From a virus (lineage: Duplodnaviria; Heunggongvirae; Uroviricota; Caudoviricetes), in IMG/VR virus record IMGVR_UViG_2681813145_000002: a stretch of 9,727 nucleotides of DNA; one strand, 5' to 3'. How positions within the stretch are numbered: the first letter of the stretch is position 1; each line of letters begins with the position of its first letter. The notes beneath the pieces were generated by a model that was not told the origin of the DNA, did not search any database, and saw only the letters and a program-made list of their open reading frames with translations. A program made the position numbers and the translations under genes. This document shows, piece after piece, positions 1 to 9,727 of the stretch.

Positions 1-62
1 ATGCTGTGCCCCGGTATCCGTCACCCATTTCTCACCATCCCATTTATCATATGGCGTTAACG
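1..62. repeat. Left copy of a direct repeat shared with 8764..8825 (59/60 identical over the first 60 nt, then diverging); truncated by the window edge
   Basis: Direct comparison of the sequence at the two locations; both copies lie in chaperone genes and encode PLTPYDKWDGEKWVTDTGAQH. Confidence 0.85.
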
Positions 63-384
63 GGGCGATAGTGGTTGTATTTTCAGGGTAATCACCCGGA
101 GCTGTGATTTCTTTCGATTCTCCTGTTTCGGTGCTATAGATGATTTCACCGCGATGGTCTGGCACATATTCCCATGAGTTAAAATCTGCAGAACGGCAGA
201 TTGCATAACCAGCTTTATGTGTAACTGGTGCATCTAAACAAGAACATGCCGGGATACCGACGCCAACCGCAAGATATTCAGTTGATGTGGAAATATATTC
301 CCGCGTTTCACCATCATAATTATAAACGGTTATGTCTCCCGCTTTTATGGCAATGAGTTCGTTATTTAATACGGCTTTATTCAT
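1..384 (-). CDS. Tail fibre assembly protein (chaperone), partial; start codon at 384..382, C-terminus beyond the left window edge
   Basis: My own translation of the minus strand from the ATG at 384..382 is open to position 1 (about 128 codons: MNKAVLNNELIAIKAGDITVYNYDGETREY...NSWEYVPDHRGEIIYSTETGE...PLTPYDKWDGEKWVTDTGAQH). The DHRG..Y motif and the PLTPYDKWDGEKW segment are typical of Tfa/gpG-family chaperones. The start overlaps the H stop (TGATG). Positions 1..60 are 59/60 identical to 8764..8823 inside the second chaperone gene. Confidence 0.8.
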   Translation of the reverse strand, partial: MNKAVLNNELIAIKAGDITVYNYDGETREYISTSTEYLAVGVGIPACSCLDAPVTHKAGYAICRSADFNSWEYVPDHRGEIIYSTETGESKEITAPGDYPENTTTIAPLTPYDKWDGEKWVTDTGAQH

Positions 385-1670
385 CAGGCAGCCCTCACGA
401 TATAATTAAAGGCAATGTTACGAGGTCGGTTTTCGTTTGCAGTTGGAACAACTCTGGAAGCATCGAATGTTACTCGCTTTGCATAACCACCTTTAATTGA
501 ATCAGATGAAGCATCTCCGATGACGCTGGTTGTAAAAACGCCAGAATCAGAAGGGTAGGTATTAAACCTGACATCCACTAATGCACCAATTATATTTCGA
601 ATGGCATCTCCCTGTGACGAAAGCAAGCTACGGTTAGTATCTATTCCTCTTCCGTCATCCCAGCCACGAATGAACTCACCACGTAAATCAGGCAATTTAT
701 TTGTCGGGTAAGCCTTTGCCAGTTCCGGGTATTCTTCAGCAGAAAAAGCCGCACCGTTGCATTTCAGCCAGCCTGTTGGCGGAGTGGCGGAAGGCCACGG
801 AACAGGTACACCAACGGGTAACGCTGAGCCTTCTCCCAAACCAAGGTATGCGAGAAGACCAGCCACATCCTTTCCACTCAAATGAGTCAGCGTCTCATCC
901 AGTGGTTGCTTACCTGACAGCGCATTGTTAATGGTGGTGCTGAATTTCGGGTCATTGTTGATAGCTGCTGCAATTTCCTTCAGCGTGTCCAGCGTGGCTG
1001 GCGCACCGTCAATCAGAGCGGTAATAGCAGCCTGTACAAACGCAGTGGTCGCAATCCGCGTGGTGTTATTTCCTGCGGCAGGCGTCGGCGCTTTTGGTTC
1101 TCCGGTAAATGTCGGATTATGTTTCTGCGCATACTGGGTATGAGGATCCTGTGCGGCAATGTGGTTTCTCATCTGTTCATCCACATACAGCCTTAATTCC
1201 AGGACTTCATCATCCACGTATTTACGGGTCGCCAGTACCACCGACGGGTCGATTTTCAGCGTAATAGCTTCGGTATTCGTGACAACCAGAATCATGCGGA
1301 TAGTCTGGGTACGACCGCTGCCTTCCTGCAACTGCGGTTTGTACGTTTCCGGGCAGTTCGCCACCGCAATGAGTACGCCTTCATCATCATAAAGCCCAAT
1401 CTCACGGATCCAGAATCCGCCCTCGTTCTCAGGGATGATTTGCTCCGCAATAATCTGGCTCTGGTTGTTCGGGTCAACACTCAGAAGATTCAGCGGCGCG
1501 ATGCGTTTCTGGTTAATCAGTTTTGTCTGTGCCGGGTCTGGTGTCGGCAAGACACCATTCGCATCACCAACGGCCATTTGCGTCAGATTCAGCTTACTGC
1601 CGAGCATCGTCGCGTTAGCCAGCCGTGCTGCGCCCTGATTAGTCAGAATGGCGTAGTATTTCACTGTCAT
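384..1670 (-). CDS. H: Tail fibre protein (P2 gpH-like), conserved N-terminal and collar region plus variable C-terminal receptor-binding part
   Basis: 428-aa ORF from the six-frame track. The N-terminus (MTVKYYAILTNQGAARLA...MAVGD...GGFWIREIGLYDDEGVLIAVAN) follows the conserved pattern of P2 H / Mu S type fibres. The collar motif DPKFSTTINNALSGKQPLDETLT and the C-terminal ...PRNIAFNYIVRAA ending are typical of this family. It sits after gene I with an ATGA overlap. Confidence 0.9.
   Translation of the reverse strand: MTVKYYAILTNQGAARLANATMLGSKLNLTQMAVGDANGVLPTPDPAQTKLINQKRIAPLNLLSVDPNNQSQIIAEQIIPENEGGFWIREIGLYDDEGVLIAVANCPETYKPQLQEGSGRTQTIRMILVVTNTEAITLKIDPSVVLATRKYVDDEVLELRLYVDEQMRNHIAAQDPHTQYAQKHNPTFTGEPKAPTPAAGNNTTRIATTAFVQAAITALIDGAPATLDTLKEIAAAINNDPKFSTTINNALSGKQPLDETLTHLSGKDVAGLLAYLGLGEGSALPVGVPVPWPSATPPTGWLKCNGAAFSAEEYPELAKAYPTNKLPDLRGEFIRGWDDGRGIDTNRSLLSSQGDAIRNIIGALVDVRFNTYPSDSGVFTTSVIGDASSDSIKGGYAKRVTFDASRVVPTANENRPRNIAFNYIVRAA
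831..856. other. Candidate Gin/Hin-family crossover site (site 1), TTCTCCCAAACC-AA-GGTATGCGAGAA, inside H at the constant/variable boundary
   Basis: 26-bp imperfect palindrome (12-bp half-sites around a central AA; half-sites match 10/12). The half-site pattern TTnTCnnAAACC resembles recalled gix/hix sites. On the coding strand it encodes LAYLGLGE, exactly where the two H-like proteins in the window stop being similar. Confidence 0.55.
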
Positions 1671-2278
1671 GCGTTTACTCTCAGGTTATCAATTAAATGA
1701 ATGGCCGAGGCCGGGAAATAATCCCCTCCGACAATAATGGCCTCCGGGGTGTAGGGATAAACCGTCAGGGCGTCGCCGTGATAGCATCCCGCACCGGCAA
1801 AAATGTTGCCGGTTGTACTTAAACTGATAGCCAGTCCCGTCAGATGGCGGCTTGCAGGTTTTGCATCAGCAACGAGACGCTCCAGCTCCTGATACATTTC
1901 CTCGGTAATACCCTGCTCAAGCACGCCAACAACGATGCGGAACGTCCCCGGCTCCTCGTTGAGCTGCCACCACTCCCTCACCTCAATCAGATAGCCGAGC
2001 GGCTCCACCACACGGCGAATCGCACCAATAGTGCCCTTATGGCAGTGAATGAAATACGCATCGTGGATAACAGCGCGTTTTGTCGCTTCCGGCCACTTAT
2101 CATCCCAGCGGTCAACCGAAAATGACCATGCCAGCCACGGCAGCAGATTTGCCGGACAGGTATCCGGGTTCCACAGCTCACGAATACTGACCGGCGTTCT
2201 TTCAATTTCCGCACAGGCTTTTGCGGCGGCGACCTCAAGCGGTGATGAGCCGGTCGGCAGCAGTCGCGAATCACTCAT
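1667..2278 (-). CDS. I: Baseplate / tail fibre-associated protein (P2 gpI-like)
   Basis: 203-aa ORF, N-terminus MSDSRLLPTGSSPLEVAAAKACAEIE. Positioned between J and H as in P2; 8-nt overlap with the J stop and ATGA overlap with the H start. Confidence 0.88.
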   Translation of the reverse strand: MSDSRLLPTGSSPLEVAAAKACAEIERTPVSIRELWNPDTCPANLLPWLAWSFSVDRWDDKWPEATKRAVIHDAYFIHCHKGTIGAIRRVVEPLGYLIEVREWWQLNEEPGTFRIVVGVLEQGITEEMYQELERLVADAKPASRHLTGLAISLSTTGNIFAGAGCYHGDALTVYPYTPEAIIVGGDYFPASAIHLIDNLRVNA

Positions 2279-3179
2279 CCGAGCCTCCGGTCACGACGCT
2301 GTATTCGGTGCAGAAAGACGCCTGCGTACTGTTGAGCACAATGTCGGCCAGTGGTGCGGCCAGCTCGACACGCTGCACGCCTTCCACATGCAAAGCGGCA
2401 TAAATGGCAGACAGACGGATGTCACGCCCCAGCCGGTGCTGTGCCGTGATGTACGCTTCCAGTTTTTTCACGGCGGCAGCGCGAATGGGTTCGCTTTCGG
2501 GACCTGGGTAAAGGTAAAGCGTGGCGTTTATCTGGTATTCAACGATGGCGGCAGACTGCACGGTCACGCGGTCGGCCACCGGCCTGACGTCCTCGCCATT
2601 AAGGGCGTTACGCACCACAGCCAGCAGGTCTTCGGATGCGACGCCGTTATTTTCACGTGACAGCACAGAGATGGTGACGCAGGCCGGAGACGGACTGGTG
2701 ACAGAAATATCCGCGACACGCCCGTCAGCACTGCGACCATGATACTGATAGGCACCCACCGACCCGGCGACGCTTAAACCTTCAAACGCCTGCTGAATAC
2801 GCAGACGATAATCGGTGTCAGATTCCATCACTGCCGGTGTCGGCGGGAGGGTCGAATCATCTGCCGGGGTGATAGTCAGGCGCGTGGTGTTGTAATTGGC
2901 ACCAATCACATCAAGGTCATTACCGGCGGCACAGGCCAGCATCACCGCCCGTGCGGCCTCATTCACACGCTGACGCCAGATAAGCTCACGATAAGCATTT
3001 TCCTCCAGAAGTTTGACGAGAGGCTCAGATTCCAGCGTCAGGGTACGGGCGACCGCCTCCTGCTGGTCTTCCGGGTAAAGGGAAATCAGTGTCGCCTTGC
3101 GTTCGGCGAGAATGGTTTCAAAGTCCAGCTCCTCGACCACATCCGGTGCGGGTAGCTGGTTCAGGTCGATAATCGGCAT
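2271..3179 (-). CDS. J: Baseplate assembly (wedge) protein (P2 gpJ-like)
   Basis: 302-aa ORF in the conserved W-J-I position; size and sequence consistent with the gpJ / T4 gp6-like baseplate family (recognised by recall). Confidence 0.9.
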   Translation of the reverse strand: MPIIDLNQLPAPDVVEELDFETILAERKATLISLYPEDQQEAVARTLTLESEPLVKLLEENAYRELIWRQRVNEAARAVMLACAAGNDLDVIGANYNTTRLTITPADDSTLPPTPAVMESDTDYRLRIQQAFEGLSVAGSVGAYQYHGRSADGRVADISVTSPSPACVTISVLSRENNGVASEDLLAVVRNALNGEDVRPVADRVTVQSAAIVEYQINATLYLYPGPESEPIRAAAVKKLEAYITAQHRLGRDIRLSAIYAALHVEGVQRVELAAPLADIVLNSTQASFCTEYSVVTGGSDE

Positions 3180-3183
3180 GGTT

Positions 3184-3531
3184 TCAACTCACAGGAATGG
3201 TTAACGAAAGTGGCTGGCCGGTGTCGTTGTGCTGACCGGTTAACGTGACCGTCATTCGCCCGTCAAAACTGCGCTCAGTGGTGACGGATGACAGGGTGAC
3301 GCGGGGTTCCCATTTCAGCACTGCCATGTAACAGGCGACCTTAATCTGCAACTCAAGCGCCGGAGTCTGCGGCTGGTCAATCATTGACGCCAGCAACGAG
3401 CCGTAATCACGACGCATCACCCGTGAGCCGACAGGTGTGCGCAGGATATCGCCGATACTCTGGCTGATATGCTCAAGGTCAGTGACAGTCAGGCCATCAC
3501 TGCGATTCATTCCGAGATAACGCGCTGTCAT
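3184..3531 (-). CDS. W: Baseplate protein (P2 gpW-like, gp25-like)
   Basis: 115-aa ORF; ATGA overlap with the V stop; conserved V-W-J order. Confidence 0.9.
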   Translation of the reverse strand: MTARYLGMNRSDGLTVTDLEHISQSIGDILRTPVGSRVMRRDYGSLLASMIDQPQTPALELQIKVACYMAVLKWEPRVTLSSVTTERSFDGRMTVTLTGQHNDTGQPLSLTIPVS

Positions 3532-4163
3532 AGAGGACTCCCGGTTGTGCCGCCGCTGTCGCCTGGGTGTTTGTGGGTATGCAGTACCTTCCCGTTTGAT
3601 GAGAGTTCACCGCCGGTGTGTTCAATGTTGCCGCGCATCGTCCCGCCCTTCTGCACTTCCAGCGTGCCGGTAATCAGCTTGTTAGTGCAGACCACCTCCG
3701 GTGTGTCCAGGGTGACGCGGGTTGATGCTTTCACCACGACCACCGGCACCATGGCAGTAACAGAATCAGAAGCCGTCACGCTGGCCGTTTTAATTCCGCT
3801 TACCGTGAGTGCACTGGTTTCGGGTTCATACTCAATCACCGCCCCGTCAGGGAAACGGATATGCATGGCATCCGCCGACGCAGACGGCGCGGGGTTATCG
3901 CCGGAATAAATCCCCGGCAGAACGAACGCCGTGTCGAGTTCACCGCCCACGGCCAGAATCAGCACCTGTTCCCCCACGGAAGGTGCCCACCATGTGCGCG
4001 AACGCCCGGCACGATGGGTCAGCCACTGCAGCCAGTCGGTGCACATGCTGCCGGTCTGCACACGGCAGCGACCGGCGTTAAGGTCGGTTTCGACGACAAG
4101 GCCGGTACGAATCATGTTGCGCAGTGCGCGCGCGAGTTCCTGAATATTTGCAAGAGTGTTCAT
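3528..4163 (-). CDS. V: Baseplate spike / hub protein (P2 gpV-like)
   Basis: 211-aa ORF beginning MNTLANIQELARALRNMIRTGL, which matches my recollection of P2 gpV in sequence and length. Confidence 0.9.
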   Translation of the reverse strand: MNTLANIQELARALRNMIRTGLVVETDLNAGRCRVQTGSMCTDWLQWLTHRAGRSRTWWAPSVGEQVLILAVGGELDTAFVLPGIYSGDNPAPSASADAMHIRFPDGAVIEYEPETSALTVSGIKTASVTASDSVTAMVPVVVVKASTRVTLDTPEVVCTNKLITGTLEVQKGGTMRGNIEHTGGELSSNGKVLHTHKHPGDSGGTTGSPL

Positions 4164-4175
4164 AACGGGAAGGAT

Positions 4176-4197
4176 GCCGCCGGGTCATACCGGCGGC
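4176..4197. repeat. GC-rich inverted repeat (8-bp stem GCCGCCGG/CCGGCGGC, 6-nt loop) in the 66-bp S-V intergenic gap
   Basis: Seen directly: gccgccgg-gtcata-ccggcggc. It lies 13-34 nt upstream of the V start codon on the coding strand and is not followed by a U-run. Confidence 0.5.
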
Positions 4198-4229
4198 AAT
4201 GTGACGATGAGGTGTCGGAAATGGCACAA

Positions 4230-4682
4230 CTAACGGTCGAGATGAGCCAGGATAATCTCTTCAATCATCTGCACATCCTCACCGGTAAAGCCGAGCAGAG
4301 GACGCGCCGGATAATCAATTTTCTTACCGTCTTTCCGGGTTTCTTCCGACAGACCGAACTGATGCACACTGGCGATTTTCGGTGACTTCCCGCCGTAAAA
4401 CTCCATTGATGACTGTTCCGGGCTGGCGCGGATATGCAAAAAACGACTGGTGATAAGTTTCGCAAACATTTTTCGCTTAACACGACCGGTCTTTTTTCTG
4501 GAGCTCTGCTGCTGGCGTGGCGCATAGGGTGTGCCATCCGGGGCTTTCTGTGCCATCACCCGACGCTGCTGACTCTGCCGCAGGCGTTTCGCCAGTTCGG
4601 CACTCAGTCGCCGACGCCCTGACGGTGACAGCGATTCAATAAGTCCGGTCAGCCGGTCTTCAAAACGCTTAAACTCATTCAT
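4230..4682 (-). CDS. S: Tail completion / virion morphogenesis protein (P2 gpS-like)
   Basis: 150-aa ORF; size and position (after R, before V) as in P2; 8-nt overlap with R. Confidence 0.88.
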   Translation of the reverse strand: MNEFKRFEDRLTGLIESLSPSGRRRLSAELAKRLRQSQQRRVMAQKAPDGTPYAPRQQQSSRKKTGRVKRKMFAKLITSRFLHIRASPEQSSMEFYGGKSPKIASVHQFGLSEETRKDGKKIDYPARPLLGFTGEDVQMIEEIILAHLDR

Positions 4683-5142
4683 CCCACTTGCTCACCAGTT
4701 CGCCATTGATATACAGCTCCATCGGGCGGGTGACCGGCTCCGGCGGCGGGGGTTCCGGGATATTCTTCACATGCAGTGCGCCATCCACCTCACTGACCAG
4801 CGTGCGCTCGGTCAGCATCAGGCTGATGCTGATATCAAAGCTGCTGTCATTGTTGATGTCCGCATAAAACGTGAAGCCCTTTTTCTGGCCTGCGTCGGTG
4901 GTCATGATGTCGGGCTGATTTTCCCGCAGCCACGCCAGCACCGGCACGATGAGCAGGTCAAAATCACCGGTAAAGTCGGTCACAATGACATTGAGCGTGT
5001 AACGCTTTTCGAATGACAGCGACGTCGCCAGCGTGGAGGCAATACTCCCGTTATCCACGAATATCCGAAGCATCTCGGGGCTTGTTTTCAGCACCGTGAC
5101 GGCATCAGTCAGCGCCCTGCGCAGGCTGTCGGGTTTGAGCAT
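4675..5142 (-). CDS. R: Tail completion protein (P2 gpR-like)
   Basis: 155-aa ORF; size and position between the lysis genes and S match P2 R. Confidence 0.88.
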   Translation of the reverse strand: MLKPDSLRRALTDAVTVLKTSPEMLRIFVDNGSIASTLATSLSFEKRYTLNVIVTDFTGDFDLLIVPVLAWLRENQPDIMTTDAGQKKGFTFYADINNDSSFDISISLMLTERTLVSEVDGALHVKNIPEPPPPEPVTRPMELYINGELVSKWDE

Positions 5143-5395
5143 CGTTTTCGTCCTGACAGTGTTTAATCATTTTTATCTGGCTGGCACAGCGTGCCAGCGC
5201 GTTCTCAAGCTGCCGGATATCGGCACTTAAATCACCGTTCGTCTCCGGGTCACTGCCCGGCATCGGGCAAAGACTCACTTTCGGGCAGGCGTTGGCGACA
5301 ATCACTGGCGTCGGTGCAGACCGGGCGCTGGTGCAACCGGCGCACAGCATCAGGCAGGCCAGCGCCGTACCAGCGGCGAAAATCTTCGTTTTCAT
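5105..5395 (-). CDS. lysC: Outer-membrane spanin component (Rz1-like lipoprotein, P2 LysC-like); overlapped arrangement
   Basis: The six-frame ORF 5105..5512 is trimmed to the internal ATG at 5395..5393, which has a GAGG Shine-Dalgarno 8 nt upstream. The 96-aa product begins MKTKIFAAGTALACLMLCAGC (signal-peptide-like with Cys at 18 and 21; the lipobox is non-canonical) and is Pro-rich. It starts inside lysB in another frame, runs past the lysB stop and overlaps the R start. Confidence 0.7.
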   Translation of the reverse strand: MKTKIFAAGTALACLMLCAGCTSARSAPTPVIVANACPKVSLCPMPGSDPETNGDLSADIRQLENALARCASQIKMIKHCQDENDAQTRQPAQGAD

Positions 5396-5675
5396 TGAGT
5401 AACCTCGTGATGGTTTTCTCGCGCTGTGCTTCACGCTTCGCGGCGTTCTCCAGTTCCTGACGCAGTGCCACCTGCGCCAGCTCGTTTTTGTCTGCTCTGG
5501 TGAGGGCAACATGAAGCTGATTTTTCAGCATGGTGATGGTCGTCTGCTGCCCGCTGGCGACGTTGTTCACCCTGTCCAGCGAGGCGCGCAGGCTGGCGTT
5601 TTCATGCTTCGCCAGAAACAGCCCCGCCACCGCCAGCGATAACAACACGACCAGCACAATCATCAGCTTTGACAT
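5250..5675 (-). CDS. lysB: Inner-membrane spanin component (Rz-like, P2 LysB-like)
   Basis: 141-aa ORF with an N-terminal hydrophobic segment (MSKLMIVLVVLLSLAVAGLFLA) followed by a charged, coiled-coil-like region; lies downstream of lysA and contains the lysC start. Confidence 0.85.
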   Translation of the reverse strand: MSKLMIVLVVLLSLAVAGLFLAKHENASLRASLDRVNNVASGQQTTITMLKNQLHVALTRADKNELAQVALRQELENAAKREAQREKTITRLLNENEDFRRWYGAGLPDAVRRLHQRPVCTDASDCRQRLPESESLPDAGQ

Positions 5676-6088
5676 AATTCCCGCCCCTCAAGACGCTGAC
5701 GACAGGCTTTACGTATCAGCCGGAAAAACAGCGACGCCACAAGATAAATCAGCGCGGTAAAAATCCACCCGGCAGCGACCAGCGAGATAAACGTCACCAC
5801 CATCACCACCAGAGCTGCCGCCCGTCTGCGCCACGGCACCGGCTGTAAAAACAGCGACGTGACAATCTTCACGGCCAGCGATTCCGGCGGAAGCTCCCGC
5901 CCGTAGCGCTCAAGTACATACTCAGTGGCATACACGCCGACACCACCGGCAACCACACAGATAGCCGTCGCCAGAATCGCCCAGGCAGCGACAAAATTGA
6001 CGCCCCCGCTCTGCGGGTAAATCAGGGACAGTGCCAGCATCAGCGCCAGCGACACGTTCAGCATCAGTGAAAGGGATAATTTCTTCAT
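5663..6088 (-). CDS. lysA: Lysis-timing membrane protein (P2 LysA-like)
   Basis: 141-aa ORF with several hydrophobic helices; position between the endolysin K and lysB as in P2; GGAG Shine-Dalgarno upstream. Confidence 0.82.
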   Translation of the reverse strand: MKKLSLSLMLNVSLALMLALSLIYPQSGGVNFVAAWAILATAICVVAGGVGVYATEYVLERYGRELPPESLAVKIVTSLFLQPVPWRRRAAALVVMVVTFISLVAAGWIFTALIYLVASLFFRLIRKACRQRLEGRELCQS

Positions 6089-6102
6089 GGTGTTTACTCC
6101 GT

Positions 6103-6600
6103 TTAAGCCAGTACGCCGCCAGCGGTACGCCAGACGGTGACCAGTTTTTCCAGTGAATGCTCACGCTGACCGTAACCGGCACCCGGCAGGGACGCCCAGA
6201 TATTGCGACAGCGTGAAATGGCGCGCTCAATGCGTCCCGCCCGGATGTCATCCAGTGCACCGCGTTCGCGGATCAACTGAATGGCGAGTCTGTCCTGTGA
6301 CAACGGACTGAAATCCGGCAGGGCAAGCTGTTTGCGGTAATGCGGCCAGAACAGGTAAAGCTGCTGATAGCGACCGGAGGCCGTGGACTTTTCACCGCGA
6401 CGGTTAAACACCTTCGCCGGTCGGCCATGCGCGAACGGGTGGTCACTGTAGTCGGTGAAAATTTCCGGCTTCCCGTCCAGTCCGGTGACTATCACGTCAT
6501 AGCCCCGGTTTTTCGTCAGCGGATGGTTTGCCGTCCCTTCGGACACGGCCAGCATGTCGAGAAAGGCCGCGATATTCTGATGCGTGTTAATTACCGGCAT
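6103..6600 (-). CDS. K: Endolysin, phage lysozyme (P2 gpK-like)
   Basis: 165-aa ORF beginning MPVINTHQNIAAFLDMLAVSEGT, which matches my recollection of P2 K; start overlaps the holin stop by 1 nt (TAATG). Confidence 0.9.
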   Translation of the reverse strand: MPVINTHQNIAAFLDMLAVSEGTANHPLTKNRGYDVIVTGLDGKPEIFTDYSDHPFAHGRPAKVFNRRGEKSTASGRYQQLYLFWPHYRKQLALPDFSPLSQDRLAIQLIRERGALDDIRAGRIERAISRCRNIWASLPGAGYGQREHSLEKLVTVWRTAGGVLA

Positions 6601-6881
6601 TACGGTTTCCCCCTGCCCTTAAAGCGGCGCTGAATGGCAATCTCAATCACCTGATAACCGGCGATACCCAGCATGGAGCCGATGCCGCACACCGCAGGCA
6701 GTGACAGGTCAGGAAACTGCACCAGAACAACACCGGCAACCATCGAGACAAAACCACCGAGCAACATGCGCCCGATAAACAGACGCGGGGTGATGGGTTC
6801 ACCACCGGCAAGCACCTTGCCGACAACAATCAGAACCCCAATCATGAAAAGCGACAGGACGCTTTTTTCTTCTGCTGTCAT
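6600..6881 (-). CDS. Y: Holin (P2 gpY-like)
   Basis: 93-aa ORF with multiple transmembrane-like hydrophobic segments and a charged C-terminus (RRFKGRGKP); GGGAG Shine-Dalgarno upstream; immediately precedes the endolysin. Confidence 0.88.
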   Translation of the reverse strand: MTAEEKSVLSLFMIGVLIVVGKVLAGGEPITPRLFIGRMLLGGFVSMVAGVVLVQFPDLSLPAVCGIGSMLGIAGYQVIEIAIQRRFKGRGKP

Positions 6882-6884
6882 GCG

Positions 6885-7088
6885 TTACTCCCACAGATTG
6901 ACAGTTTCAGCCACGGGCGCGGTCTGAACGTCGGGCAGTTCGACGGCGGTGCCGTGCGGCAGCACCGCGCCCAGTTCAGCCAGTCCCGGATTTGCGGCGA
7001 GCACGGTCTCAACCACGCCCTCAGTGCGCCCGTAATACCGGACACAAATGGCGTCGAGCGTGTCGCCCTGTAGCGCAAAGGTCTTCAT
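6885..7088 (-). CDS. X: Tail protein X (small LysM-like protein, P2 gpX-like)
   Basis: The six-frame ORF 6885..7157 is trimmed to the ATG at 7088..7086 (MKTFALQGDTLDAICVRYYGRTEGVVETVLAANPGL...), giving 67 aa; the start overlaps the L stop by 1 nt. Confidence 0.85.
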   Translation of the reverse strand: MKTFALQGDTLDAICVRYYGRTEGVVETVLAANPGLAELGAVLPHGTAVELPDVQTAPVAETVNLWE

Positions 7089-7597
7089 CAGATTTGACTC
7101 ACGATGCAGCGCGGCTTGTCCTGGATACGCGCCACCGCCCAGCGCATATCCCGCCACAGTTCATCGATGGTGCTGTCAATGCTGTCAGCCTTCTTGTCGC
7201 CTTTCGCACTGGCATCCACGCCGCGGTAACGCTCATAAAGCGACGCGGTCGCCATCGCACACACGGCGCGCTCGTAGTAAAAAACCTTGATGCTTTCACC
7301 GTCGATGTCGTCCGCCGGGACGTCCGCCAGACGCGTAAAACCGGCGGCAATTTTCTGTTCGCGGTACTCGTACAGCTCCGCATTCGTCTCCGCCATGCCT
7401 GACTTGATGGCCTCACGCAGACGGGCGGGGGCGACGGTCTGCTCAAGGCGCATACGTTCCCGGACGCGCTTCGGGTCGATATCGGGAAAAAAGAACGTGT
7501 TTTTAATCACCGGCTCGTCGCCTGCCGGTTGCGGGATGACCACCGTACCCTCACCGGACACGGGAGCCTCCTTTCGCGGAATAATCAGCGTCATCAT
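7088..7597 (-). CDS. L: Head completion / stabilisation protein (P2 gpL-like)
   Basis: The six-frame ORF 7088..7657 is trimmed to the ATG at 7597..7595 (MMTLIIPRKEAPVSGEG...), giving 169 aa with a GAGG Shine-Dalgarno 9 nt upstream; sequence and length fit P2 L as I recall it. Confidence 0.87.
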   Translation of the reverse strand: MMTLIIPRKEAPVSGEGTVVIPQPAGDEPVIKNTFFFPDIDPKRVRERMRLEQTVAPARLREAIKSGMAETNAELYEYREQKIAAGFTRLADVPADDIDGESIKVFYYERAVCAMATASLYERYRGVDASAKGDKKADSIDSTIDELWRDMRWAVARIQDKPRCIVSQI

Positions 7598-7696
7598 GAC
7601 TACCTCTGAAAAGTCGGGCGGTGGACGCCGGTGCAGTGTCAGGTGATTCACCCTCACTGACCGGCGTGCCGCCCTGGCGCGGGGCGCATTCGGTTG

Positions 7697-7792
7697 TTAA
7701 CTGGCTTTCTTTTTCGGGCGTCCACGTTTTGCCGGTGTCACGCTCCGGGTCTTACGCGGGGTACGGGTGGCCGCTTTTGGCTGCGGCTCCAT
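7697..7792 (-). CDS. Hypothetical short basic ORF (31 aa, [31 protein letters not shown]) with an AT-hook-like RGRP core; possibly a C-terminal remnant of a truncated gene
   Basis: My own translation; it is below the 60-aa cut-off of the ORF track. It starts immediately outside crossover site 3 and ends 100 nt before L. No convincing Shine-Dalgarno was checked, so coding status is uncertain. Confidence 0.2.
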
Positions 7793-7799
7793 CTCTGCA

Positions 7800-7825
7800 T
7801 TTTCATAAACGTTGGTTTGGGAGAA
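7800..7825. other. Candidate Gin/Hin-family crossover site (site 3), TTTTCATAAACG-TT-GGTTTGGGAGAA, inverted relative to sites 1 and 2
   Basis: The right half-site GGTTTGGGAGAA is the exact reverse complement of the left half-site of sites 1 and 2 (TTCTCCCAAACC). The central dinucleotide is TT versus AA in the others. The left half is degenerate (8/12). Confidence 0.5.
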
Positions 7826-8131
7826 GCGGCAAAACGGAATGTGGGAACAGGGGAAAATCAGATACCTAGTATGTCAGAATGGACATCTGGGACAGGATGG
7901 AATAGAGACCCGTCGGGGAGAATAATACAGCGGGGATTTGCTATGACATCAAGCCAAACCAACATTTTATTCCCGATACCATTTCCGTATGACGATTTCG
8001 AAGTTATCGTTTGTGCAGCAGATACAGGAGCAAATAAAGGGGCCGTAAATGTGTTGCGAAAATCGAGGCAGGGGTTTTCTGTTTCACAGGTTGGAAGTAT
8101 GCCAGTCGCATACAGATGGATAGCGGGGTGA
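7826..8131 (+). other. Promoterless alternative tail fibre variable (receptor-binding tip) cassette, about 102 codons, in frame with crossover site 3
   Basis: The plus-strand frame through site 3 encodes GLGE at the site, the same as H at site 1, and stays open to the stop at 8129..8131 (...[42 protein letters not shown]...VAYRWIAG). There is no upstream constant region and no good Shine-Dalgarno for the internal ATG at 7871. It is followed by its own chaperone gene. Confidence 0.6.
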
Positions 8132-8574
8132 TTGAAATGTATAAATTTGATCCAAAGAATGCATTATTCTATCCTGCTGCGTCAATTTCCGATTATAAAT
8201 TGAGCGAAGATGAAATCGCCACATTCACTGATATTAGCGAGGAGGATGCAACCGAGTTTTTAGGATTCCCGCCGACTGGAAAAATCAGAGGGTCGGACGG
8301 TTATGGCAATCCTGCATGGGTTGAAATACCTCCACCATCACATGAGGAACTTATTGAACAGGCCGAATCAGAGAGGCAATTATTGATTAACCATGCCAAC
8401 GAATACATGAACAGTAAACAATGGCCTGGTAAAGCGGCTATTGGTCGTCTGAATGGTGAGGAACTGGCGCAATATAATTTGTGGCTGGATTATCTGAACG
8501 CACTGGAACTGGTTGATACCTCCAGTGCGCCAGATATTGAATGGCCTACGCCTCCGGCAGTTCAGGCCAGATGA
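8116..8574 (+). CDS. Tail fibre assembly protein (chaperone) paired with the silent variable cassette; true start may be the ATG at 8137 (MYKFDPKN...)
   Basis: 152-aa ORF with a Tfa-family C-terminus (...[26 protein letters not shown]), similar in pattern to lambda Tfa and Mu U C-termini. Its 3' end overlaps the 3' end of the minus-strand chaperone gene by 29 nt, as with the convergent chaperone genes of the Mu G segment. Confidence 0.8.
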
Positions 8575-9139
8575 CATCCGGCGCGGTGCTGGTATCTGTT
8601 GCCGTCACCGCGTCAATGTAATCCAGCACAGCGTTAAGTCGGGTGGTTTCTGCCTGCGTCAGTTTACGTCCGGCCTGCAATTTCAGTTGAATCAGACTGA
8701 TGGAAGCCATTGCAGTATCAATCAGCGACTGGCGCTGTGCTTCTGCTGCATCTACTGCGGCGCTATGCTGTGCCCCGGTATCCGTCACCCATTTCTCACC
8801 ATCCCATTTATCGTATGGCGTTAACGGTGAAAGCGTGACATAACCGTCTTTGATGGCACCGATATAATCCACTGTAACAGCTGCGCCATTTTCGATTGAG
8901 TAAACAGTCTCATTGCGGTGGTCTTCTTCATGGCTCCATCCCTTACCTGTAAATACTGCCACTCTTCCCGGAATGTTTTCGCCAGGATCAATACCAGTGG
9001 AACAGGCGGGCATACTTACGCCAGTATTAATATATTCATCAGACCAGCCCGTATACTCAGATGTTTCAGCATCATAATAAAAACAACGCATATCGCCCGG
9101 CACTGTAGCCAGCCCATTTTCATCAAAAACAGGTTTCAT
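8546..9139 (-). CDS. Tail fibre assembly protein (chaperone, P2 gpG-like) paired with the right-hand fibre gene
   Basis: 197-aa ORF (MKPVFDENGLA...PLTPYDKWDGEKWVTDTGAQH...[26 protein letters not shown]). The Tfa-family C-terminal motif is present; the start overlaps the stop of the upstream fibre gene by 1 nt (TAATG). Confidence 0.85.
   Translation of the reverse strand: MKPVFDENGLATVPGDMRCFYYDAETSEYTGWSDEYINTGVSMPACSTGIDPGENIPGRVAVFTGKGWSHEEDHRNETVYSIENGAAVTVDYIGAIKDGYVTLSPLTPYDKWDGEKWVTDTGAQHSAAVDAAEAQRQSLIDTAMASISLIQLKLQAGRKLTQAETTRLNAVLDYIDAVTATDTSTAPDVIWPELPEA
8764..8825. repeat. Right copy of the direct repeat shared with 1..62
   Basis: Direct comparison; single mismatch (atcatatgg versus atcgtatgg). 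Confidence 0.85.
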
Positions 9140-9727
9140 TATTTAGCCCTCACCAGAAAGTTAAATGCAATATTTCGCGGTCTGACGGCAATAAAATTCA
9201 CACCATCCCCTACAGCAGAACTGGTGAACTGAAATCTTGAAAAGCCAGGCTGATTACCTGTAATTCCATCATGACTATTAATCGCATGGCCGGACCCTTC
9301 TGGATAATTACCGCCAAATTGCGATAAAGATGTTGCTGCCTGCCAGCTTAATAATTCGCGACCACCATCTGCACCTCGCCCGTCATCCCAGATACGAATG
9401 AAATCACCGCGGGCTTCAGGTAATACCAGCGAAGGAAACACTTTTGCCAGCACAGGGTAATCAGAGGCAGAAAATTTCGCCCCGTTGAACTTCAAAAACA
9501 CCATACTGGACCAGCTGTCGATTACAGTATTTGGCATTGCAGCGGACGGCCAGAAGAACGGAACGCCAATAGCTGGAGCACCTTCTCCCAAACCAAGGTA
9601 TGCAAGAAGACCGGCAACATCCTTCCCACTCAAATTGGTAAGCGTATTGTCCAGCGGTTGTTTACCTGCCAGCGCATTAAGCATTGTCGTGGCAAAGTTC
9701 GGATCATTCCCCAGTGCCGCCGCCAGT
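9139..9727 (-). CDS. Tail fibre protein, 3' portion only (collar plus variable C-terminal domain); 5' end beyond the right window edge
   Basis: The minus-strand frame is open from the window edge (LAAALGNDPNFATTMLNALAGKQPLDNTLTNLSGKDVAGLLAYLGLGEG...) to the stop at 9141..9139. The collar is about 80% similar to that of H at 384..1670 and close to my recollection of the P2 H collar; the part after GLGEG is a different variable domain, ending ...PRNIAFNFLVRAK. Confidence 0.85.
   Translation of the reverse strand, partial: LAAALGNDPNFATTMLNALAGKQPLDNTLTNLSGKDVAGLLAYLGLGEGAPAIGVPFFWPSAAMPNTVIDSWSSMVFLKFNGAKFSASDYPVLAKVFPSLVLPEARGDFIRIWDDGRGADGGRELLSWQAATSLSQFGGNYPEGSGHAINSHDGITGNQPGFSRFQFTSSAVGDGVNFIAVRPRNIAFNFLVRAK
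9583..9608. other. Candidate Gin/Hin-family crossover site (site 2), TTCTCCCAAACC-AA-GGTATGCAAGAA
   Basis: Differs from site 1 at one position; same orientation as site 1 and inverted relative to site 3. It lies at the constant/variable boundary of the right-hand fibre gene and encodes LAYLGLGE. Confidence 0.55.

Follow-up and report, generated by a model that had tools for sequence, protein, structure and literature searches.

Two P2-type prophage pieces carrying tail-fibre switch modules, probably placed side by side by an assembly program

The window, the whole stretch of 9,727 nt analysed here, corresponds to positions 1-9727 of the draft scaffold KQ087901.1 (assembly GCA_001030505.1), and base 7791 is the sole difference between the two. 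Position 1 is the end of the scaffold, position 9727 is followed in KQ087901.1 by 2667 N and then by a further contig, contig c, and base 7791 divides contig a (1-7790) from contig b (7792-9727). The window spans the scaffold's first two contigs and is not a single sequenced molecule. Its features are as follows.

1-384, - strand: 5′ part (128 codons) of chaperone gene G3 of the left module, Pfam Caudo_TAP, truncated by the scaffold end
384-1670, - strand: tail-fibre gene H (428 aa) of the left module, Pfam Phage_tail_fib and Collar
831-856, + strand: putative crossover site A, TTCTCCCAAACCAAGGTATGCGAGAA, inside H, encoding ..LLAYLGLGEG.. and forming the core of the left "collar" repeat (829-956)
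1667-7597, - strand: P2 late operon I, J, W, V, S, R, lysC/lysB/lysA, K, Y, X, L, from ORF sizes and order
7697-7790, - strand: last 30 codons and stop of gene M (terminase small subunit), from translation; contig a ends here
7791, no strand: join of contig a and contig b, N in the public scaffold (KQ087901.1) and A in the window
7792-7799, no strand: remnant of an invertase-proximal flank, TCTCTGCA (reverse complement TGCAGAGA), from its overlap with contig c
7800-7825, - strand: putative crossover site B, TTCTCCCAAACCAACGTTTATGAAAA in the - strand reading, inverted relative to sites A and C
7826-8131, + strand: silent alternative tip Hv2′, lacking a constant part, Pfam Gp53-like_C
8116-8574, + strand: chaperone G2′ of the silent tip, Pfam Caudo_TAP (E = 5e-31)
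8546-9139, - strand: chaperone G1 (197 aa) of the expressed tip, Pfam Caudo_TAP
9139-9727, - strand: 3′ part of a second H gene, with tip Hv1 (9139-9582) fused to constant part Hc′ (9609-9727)
9583-9608, + strand: putative crossover site C, TTCTCCCAAACCAAGGTATGCAAGAA, oriented as A and forming the core of the right "collar" repeat (9581-9708)

Contig a carries the late region expected of a P2-like phage (Peduovirus), with the order L X Y K lysA lysB/lysC R S V W J I H G and the domains of the family. The same late-operon genes carry Pfam labels in the locus L004, and positions 1845-7790 are 96-97% identical at the DNA level to Peduovirus genomes. The left H is divided into a constant part (857-1670) and a variable tip, Hv3 (384-830), and a protein identical to it is present in an intact P2-like prophage, L003. 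On contig b, the reading frame of the right H stays open up to the contig end in translation. In strain 22AR0750 the same sequence as Hv2′ forms the in-frame tip of a full H gene, and a listed ORF at 7694-8131 is a spurious upstream extension of Hv2′ over the join. The start annotated for G2′ in relatives (L007) corresponds to position 8137.

A sequence-only reading of the window had proposed that paralogous fibre modules, each an H variable tip with its chaperone, lie at the two edges, and our analysis supports this. It had overlooked two features: the "collar" repeat occurs a third time, in inverted orientation, at 7800-7825, and a tip/chaperone pair lies on the + strand at 7826-8574. Because of these two features, the right module reads as a site-specific inversion switch, and the "collar" repeat would be mainly a recombinase crossover site. 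Inverted sites of ~26 bp, 7800-7825 (-) and 9583-9608 (+), flank a segment in the expected ~1.8-3 kb range, and exact 16-nt site cores occur three times in the window, where 0.01 are expected by chance. The cores are of the Pin/Cin type and identical to the e14 P-segment inverted repeats quoted in PMC12529663, as is that of site A. The site lies in frame at the boundary of constant and variable parts, giving ..LLAYLGLGEG.. in both H proteins, and Hv2′ reads GLGE past site B. Two convergent sets of tip and chaperone are found between the sites, Hv1/G1 on the - strand and Hv2′/G2′ on the + strand, with Pfam matches to Gp53-like_C, to Caudo_TAP twice and, weakly, to Collar (16.3 bits, below the gathering cut-off of 24). 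The serine invertase gene adjacent to such a segment lies outside the window, on contig c of KQ087901.1 and directly past a crossover site; it encodes 197 aa with Resolvase and HTH_7 domains.

Comparison with relatives points the same way. In the intact relatives E7, 22AR0750 and L003 there are exactly two inverted sites, 1.8-1.9 kb apart, the invertase gene adjoins the segment, and the gene order is FI-invertase-[segment]-Hc-I...L-M. Across genomes the segment is seen in both orientations: E7 has that of the window, and in 22AR0750 it is flipped, Hv2 being fused to H. On the opposite strand, 7792-7826 can be overlapped with the first 35 nt of contig c, leaving 1 mismatch, and the flank represented by 7792-7799 is also found in E7; these eight bases are invertase-gene flank and foreign to gene M. 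From its sites and genes, we interpret 7800-9608 as a complete Pin/Gin-type invertible tail-fibre segment, containing two tip/chaperone pairs between inverted 26-bp sites. The left module would then be the expressed half (tip Hv3 and the start of chaperone G3) of a second inversion switch, and the right module appears to belong to a different H allele from the left. As judged from the intact relatives, the segment would sit between the H constant part and the invertase gene, and the invertase would flip it, attach the other tip to H and thereby alter host range.

The directly repeated stretches reported at the two edges are present, at coordinates no more than 1 base from those first given, and their similarity is far above chance. 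In the chaperone genes, 1-63 (within G3) and 8765-8827 (within G1) are identical at 62/63 positions and, over the first 60, at the 59/60 originally described. For the collar, 829-926 and 9581-9678 are 86.7% identical, and the ~80% initially quoted agrees with the 81% that we obtain over 128 nt (829-956 against 9581-9708). The DNA between these stretches was said to diverge in the variable tips and chaperone N-terminal halves, and it does: in a global alignment, 60-column blocks show ~50-65% identity and many gaps, the left and right H proteins share 52% identity over their C-terminal 195 aa, and the chaperone N-terminal parts are 45% identical. The left and right modules are homologous over their whole length and highly similar in two short stretches only, so the pairwise alignment that had been suggested finds high identity in 63 nt and in ~100-128 nt, with weaker homology elsewhere. 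The collar stretch appears to be the crossover site together with in-frame collar codons next to it (LLAYLGLGEG), and the 63-nt stretch is most simply read as the conserved C-terminal chaperone domain. Both are parts that each such module has to retain.

These results do not describe a duplication of the intervening block. The sequence between the copies is interrupted, the N at 7791 falling exactly at the homology breakpoint, and the copies are not collinear and alike throughout, high identity being confined to the two short stretches. A fresh tandem duplication of an 8.75-kb unit was considered and rejected, since the two copies represent different alleles and an N stands at the junction. 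A circular contig with overlapping ends was likewise rejected; the ends differ, and the edges of the window are a scaffold end and the 2667-N gap.

Could the three sites instead belong to one shufflon-like inversion locus, with the left and right modules as alternative cassettes of a single H that were assembled in scrambled order? The sites have identical 14-nt cores, two in the same orientation and one inverted, with a fourth on contig c, and both KQ087901.1 and a sister scaffold of the same assembly, KQ087897.1, stop at the chaperone C-terminal repeat. P2-like loci with multiple variants are documented as well, including an EPEC P2-like prophage with four coexisting variants (PMC4272514), and the plasmid locus p15B Min is an example of multi-site inversion. 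However, the right module has its own 120-nt constant region upstream of site C, in frame and open to the contig end, and since this region is only ~80% identical to the left Hc it looks like part of a second complete H and not like a silent cassette. The four sites of KQ087901.1 are also spread over three contigs linked by N only, whereas L003, the closest intact relative and the one with an identical H protein, has just two. We therefore regard a single multi-site locus as very unlikely, and favour two separate switch modules.

The placement of these modules depends on the join at 7791. Homology to the P2-family late operon stops at 7790 and homology to tail-fibre segments begins at 7791/7792, so that the last 30 codons of M abut the invertase-flank remnant and P2 synteny is broken. 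In the sister scaffold KQ087897.1, the sequence reads on into gene M past 7790, as it does in other P2-like prophages. A 301-nt probe over the join found no place with at least 80% coverage in 5,426 complete E. coli genomes, and a junction pattern allowing a gap of 0-20 nt had 0 matches in the genome_contigs, viral_contigs and metagenome_contigs collections. An initial count in which 231 E. coli genomes held at least 80% of the window was set aside; it sums separate pieces, and E7 and 22AR0750 keep the segment on the other side of H.

The same assembly contains a second copy of 22-7790, which differs by 109 SNPs that all lie within 3027-6969. The two late-operon copies are 98.6% identical, and the flanks, 22-3026 and 6970-7790, are kilobase-long stretches that are identical between the two scaffolds. 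With a second copy flanked in this way, repeat-induced trouble in scaffolding is to be expected. Many scaffolders write a single N where the gap estimate is non-positive.

Together, this makes it very probable that the window consists of two P2-type prophage pieces with ordinary host-range switch modules, which were set side by side by the assembly program over an unsequenced base. The argument draws on the observed contig boundaries, site architecture and gene content, and on a junction absent from every other collection that we searched. We hypothesize that the strain holds two or more P2-family elements sharing repeats and an invertible segment, and that the scaffolder joined a and b wrongly as a result. 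Contig a would represent a P2-like prophage, covering its late operon between the 3′ end of M and H and the expressed half of its switch. If the join is an artefact, sequence past 7790 would run into gene M (GGCTTCGGTTTCAGC...), and sequence leaving 7792 would run into the invertase flank (...TGCAGAGAT[T/A]ACGG).

Three observations on the join run counter to a wrong placement. A single N could be an ambiguous base call in contiguous sequence, some pair links must have led the scaffolder to place a beside b, and the window shows an A at 7791. Simple schemes for the error, namely links from a flipped segment, a mate-pair orientation error or a chimeric contig a, were also tried, and none reproduced the scaffold order a-b-gap-c cleanly.

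A real join would make this a rearranged, defective P2-like element in which the second switch, moved or partly duplicated, has taken the place of M and the head genes immediately upstream of L, with the two modules as genuine direct repeats on either side of the L-to-I block. The public record does list the pieces in such an order and leaves a minimal gap between them, and more than one P2-like copy in the genome would provide material for rearrangement. Yet the breakpoint base is an N, although assembly normally proceeds without interruption over a unique junction, the break is in the wrong orientation relative to the invertase flank, the prophage would be without M, and none of the 5,426 genomes or three contig collections holds the junction. 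Nor is this an invertase product, the break being 9 nt outside site B and not at the central dinucleotide. For the same reason we rejected the idea that the invertase created the junction by acting on a secondary site in M; the break is off the central AA/TT, and eight flank bases remain. We consider a real rearrangement quite unlikely. Were the order of the scaffold right, the late operon (L to the H constant part, ~7 kb) would lie between the inverted sites A (831-856) and B (7800-7825), and the invertase could flip the entire operon and attach Hv2′ to H, giving a giant invertible segment with three alternative tips; this arrangement is highly improbable.

The two late-operon copies could also come from a mixed culture or contamination, with the copies and fibre modules derived from two strains and not from two prophages of one genome. 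Two scaffolds that share a region with SNPs in the middle and identical flanks would fit such a source, but E. coli genomes commonly carry multiple P2-family prophages: the number of places per genome that match the window has a median of 2 and reaches 10, and two such prophages occur in 22AR0750. A mixed source is unlikely on these grounds, and it would alter where the pieces come from while leaving the conclusion on the join unchanged.

With misplacement by the scaffolder as the preferred reading, the earlier proposal of an ~8.75-kb offset in direct orientation is upheld for the repeats and unconfirmed for their placement on one DNA molecule. Because both the offset and the bracketing of the L-to-I block rest on the scaffolder's join and not on sequence, they are unproven, and the bracketing finds no support, with an N at the homology breakpoint, a join unmatched in every other assembly searched and a break in P2 synteny. 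The suggested role of the repeats as a substrate for deletion or duplication of the block loses its support along with the one-molecule bracketing. The "8.75-kb duplication" is no demonstrated genome structure; the apparent direct repeat arises from treating a scaffold as contiguous sequence, and windows taken from draft scaffolds can conceal single-N joins. If both modules lie in separate prophages of one chromosome, 22-3026 and 6970-7790 would be far better recombination substrates than the 63-nt repeat.

The underlying biology is already known, being Pin/Gin-type tail-fibre switches in P2-family prophages with a probable scaffolding artefact on top. The closest parallel is the e14 P segment of E. 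coli K-12 (PinE/PinQ/PinR), which has the same inverted-repeat cores (CCTTCTCCCAAACCAA / TTGGTTTGGGAGAAG), nearly the same length of ~1.8 kb (1797 bp in e14 and 1809 bp here, including the sites) and sites within convergent tail-fibre genes with Tfa-type chaperones. Unlike e14, which is a lambdoid remnant, the present switch lies in a P2-type (Peduovirus) late region and its invertase gene is on the next contig of the scaffold. As in the Mu G segment (Gin) and the P1 C segment (Cin), a crossover site links a constant fibre part to either of two tips, every tip comes with a chaperone of its own, the two sets converge and an adjacent serine invertase performs the flip; the scaffold's invertase matches the Gin structures 3uj3 and 4m6f at E = 3e-94, whereas the phage backbone and the tips differ from those of Mu and P1. 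The order ...V W J I H G and an H protein with a conserved N-terminal domain and variable C-terminus are those of phage P2. To our knowledge, canonical P2 has no invertible segment, while this lineage has one, together with an invertase gene, between G and FI. P2-like prophages with invertase-driven phase variation of tail fibres are also known from EPEC E2348/69, where both orientations were present in one culture and inversion was measured from read pairs (Goldberg et al. 2014, PMC4272514); the switch described here is known from assembled sequence.

The claim of module shuffling holds. When the right cassette is cut exactly at the crossover sites (7809-9596), a cassette with 99.6% identity to it is found, in the opposite orientation, in strain 22AR0750, whose prophage at that place is a different one and 186-like. 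This supports exchange of fibre cassettes between phages, which would take place at the crossover sites. That unrelated phages exchange fibre modules horizontally is reportedly long established (Haggard-Ljungquist 1992; Sandmeier 1994).

A repeat search, together with a self-BLAST of the window, confirmed the direct repeats that the sequence-only reading had placed at both window edges, with 62 of 63 bases identical between 1-63 and 8765-8827, and 86.7% identity between 829-926 and 9581-9678 (81% over 128 nt). When the two modules were aligned globally (1-975 against 8765-9727), 59 of 60 bases matched in the first block and 53 of 60 in the collar block, and the remaining blocks were gap-rich and ~50-65% identical. 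At the protein level, the two H proteins share 52% identity across the C-terminal 195 residues, and the two chaperones 45% in their N-terminal parts. Based on these nucleotide and protein identities, the modules proposed as paralogous are homologous over their full length, while near-identity is limited to the two short stretches. The repeat at 1-63 and 8765-8827 codes for LTPYDKWDGEKWVTDTGAQH, with which the conserved chaperone domain begins. The similarity is real: what the two paralogous tail-fibre switch modules have conserved is the crossover site, together with its collar, and the chaperone domain.

The repeat search also identified a third, inverted collar copy at 7800-7826 (pairs I1 and I9), which had been overlooked. 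The 16-nt core TTCTCCCAAACCAA[G/C]G has three exact occurrences in the window, at 831 (+), 7825 (-) and 9583 (+), where 0.01 would be expected by chance; we designate the corresponding 26-bp crossover sites A, B and C. Four genes are enclosed by the inverted pair:

9139-9582, minus strand: fibre tip, continuous with an H reading frame that is open to 9726
8546-9139, minus strand: Caudo_TAP chaperone
7826-8131, plus strand: second fibre tip, without a constant part (Gp53-like_C)
8116/8137-8574, plus strand: second Caudo_TAP chaperone

The crossover sites are in frame, and LLAYLGLGEG is encoded in both H proteins. The right module is thus built as an invertible tail-fibre segment of the Gin/Cin/Pin type. 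Its site cores are identical to the e14 P-segment inverted repeats CCTTCTCCCAAACCAA and TTGGTTTGGGAGAAGG (PMC12529663).

Cut inside sites B and C, the cassette (7809-9596) shows 99.6% identity to 9001-10788 of a locus in E. coli 22AR0750, where its counterpart resides in a second, 186-like prophage adjoining ssrA. Because this identity ends at the crossover sites and the flanks of the two cassettes are unrelated, the comparison supports a cassette exchange bounded by those sites, and the module shuffling suggested earlier is borne out. The 22AR0750 cassette has the opposite orientation, with the tip Hv2 fused to a full H gene and the tip Hv1 annotated as a partial gene, which shows that both switch states occur in nature. 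The G+C content of the tips and chaperones (43-46%; window 1-1000 and 7750-9727), compared with 55-60% in the operon, fits horizontally exchanged cassettes.

The remainder of the window is a P2-type late operon and a piece of the terminase gene:

384-1670, minus strand: H
to 7597, minus strand: I, J, W, V, S, R, lysC/B/A, K, Y, X and L
between the end of L (7597) and the M remnant: 99-nt spacer
7697-7790, minus strand: last 30 codons only of terminase gene M

Homology to Peduovirus genomes, at 96-97% identity, covers 1845-7790 and goes no further. In all three intact relatives (E. coli E7, E. coli 22AR0750 and a contig encoding the identical 428-aa H protein), the order is FI, invertase, [site, tip', chaperone', chaperone, tip, site], constant H, I, J ... 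L, M, N, O, with exactly two inverted sites spaced 1.8-1.9 kb apart. The window differs from this order, as its segment adjoins the 3' end of M. The E7 H gene (21349-22854 of its locus) is annotated as two pseudogene pieces ~650 bp apart, and the tail fibre gene of that prophage looks disrupted.

The exact window H protein is carried by KQ087901.1, a 19,686-bp scaffold of assembly GCA_001030505.1. The window differs from KQ087901.1:1-9727 only at base 7791, which is A in the window and N in the public record, and its text therefore conceals a contig join. The left edge (1) is the scaffold end and the right edge (9727) abuts a 2667-N gap (9728-12394). The scaffold thus consists of three contigs: a (1-7790) and b (7792-9727), joined by the N at 7791, and c, which follows the gap. 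With a 301-nt probe across the join, none of 5,426 complete E. coli genomes gave a match that spans it; matches end at 7790-7794 on one side and begin at 7791 on the other. A search pattern for the junction, with 0-20 nt permitted between its two sides, gave zero matches in genome, viral and metagenome contig collections. Contig c (scaffold 12395-19686) comprises:

at its start: crossover site, then TGCAGAGATTACGG...
after the site: serine recombinase gene, 197 aa (Resolvase + HTH_7; E = 3e-94 to Gin structures 3uj3/4m6f)
after the recombinase gene: FI, FII, E, T, U and D

Once reverse-complemented, the left terminus of contig b (...TTCTCCCAAACCAACGTTTATGAAAATGCAGAGA) and the first bases of contig c overlap at all but one position, and E7 has this flank too. 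The natural neighbour of 7792 is therefore an invertase gene, not gene M. Past 7790, the sequence runs on into M in the sister scaffold and all relatives. A break made by the recombinase is ruled out, since it lies 9 nt outside site B. Among P2-like prophages, gene M has a six-base indel polymorphism (GCGGCT) at window 7775-7790, just before the end of contig a, which may be the graph branch that terminated this contig. A listed 145-aa ORF (7694-8131, plus strand) crosses the join into gene M antisense; the real, silent fibre-tip coding segment within it is 7826-8131 only.

The sister scaffold from the same assembly, KQ087897.1 (792 kb; compared over 780715-792363), terminates in a region of ordinary layout, ...P O N M L ... 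H G. Its alignment with window 22-7790 contains 109 mismatches, none outside 3027-6969; the flanks (22-3026 and 6970-7790) are identical, and both scaffolds end in the conserved chaperone region. As two scaffolds carry the same late operon with mismatches confined to one interval, the strain has at least two P2-family elements sharing long identical stretches, plus invertible DNA, which are classic circumstances for contigs to break and scaffolds to be linked wrongly. The shared operon could come from two P2-like prophages that are mosaics, from gene conversion between the two, or from common flanks that entered the assembly twice. The 8.75-kb spacing, the direct-repeat bracket around the L-to-I block and the substrate for its deletion or duplication, all described in the sequence-only reading, depend on the scaffold join across the N at 7791 and are for that reason very probably artefacts. 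The components themselves are known biology, and invertible tail-fibre components in P2-like prophages have been documented by read-pair analysis (PMC4272514).

The site beside the invertase on contig c (scaffold 12396-12421; 6729-6754 of the extracted locus L006) reads ...CGTTTAAGAAAA and differs by one base from site B, which reads ...CGTTTATGAAAA; contigs c and b may thus come from different prophage copies.
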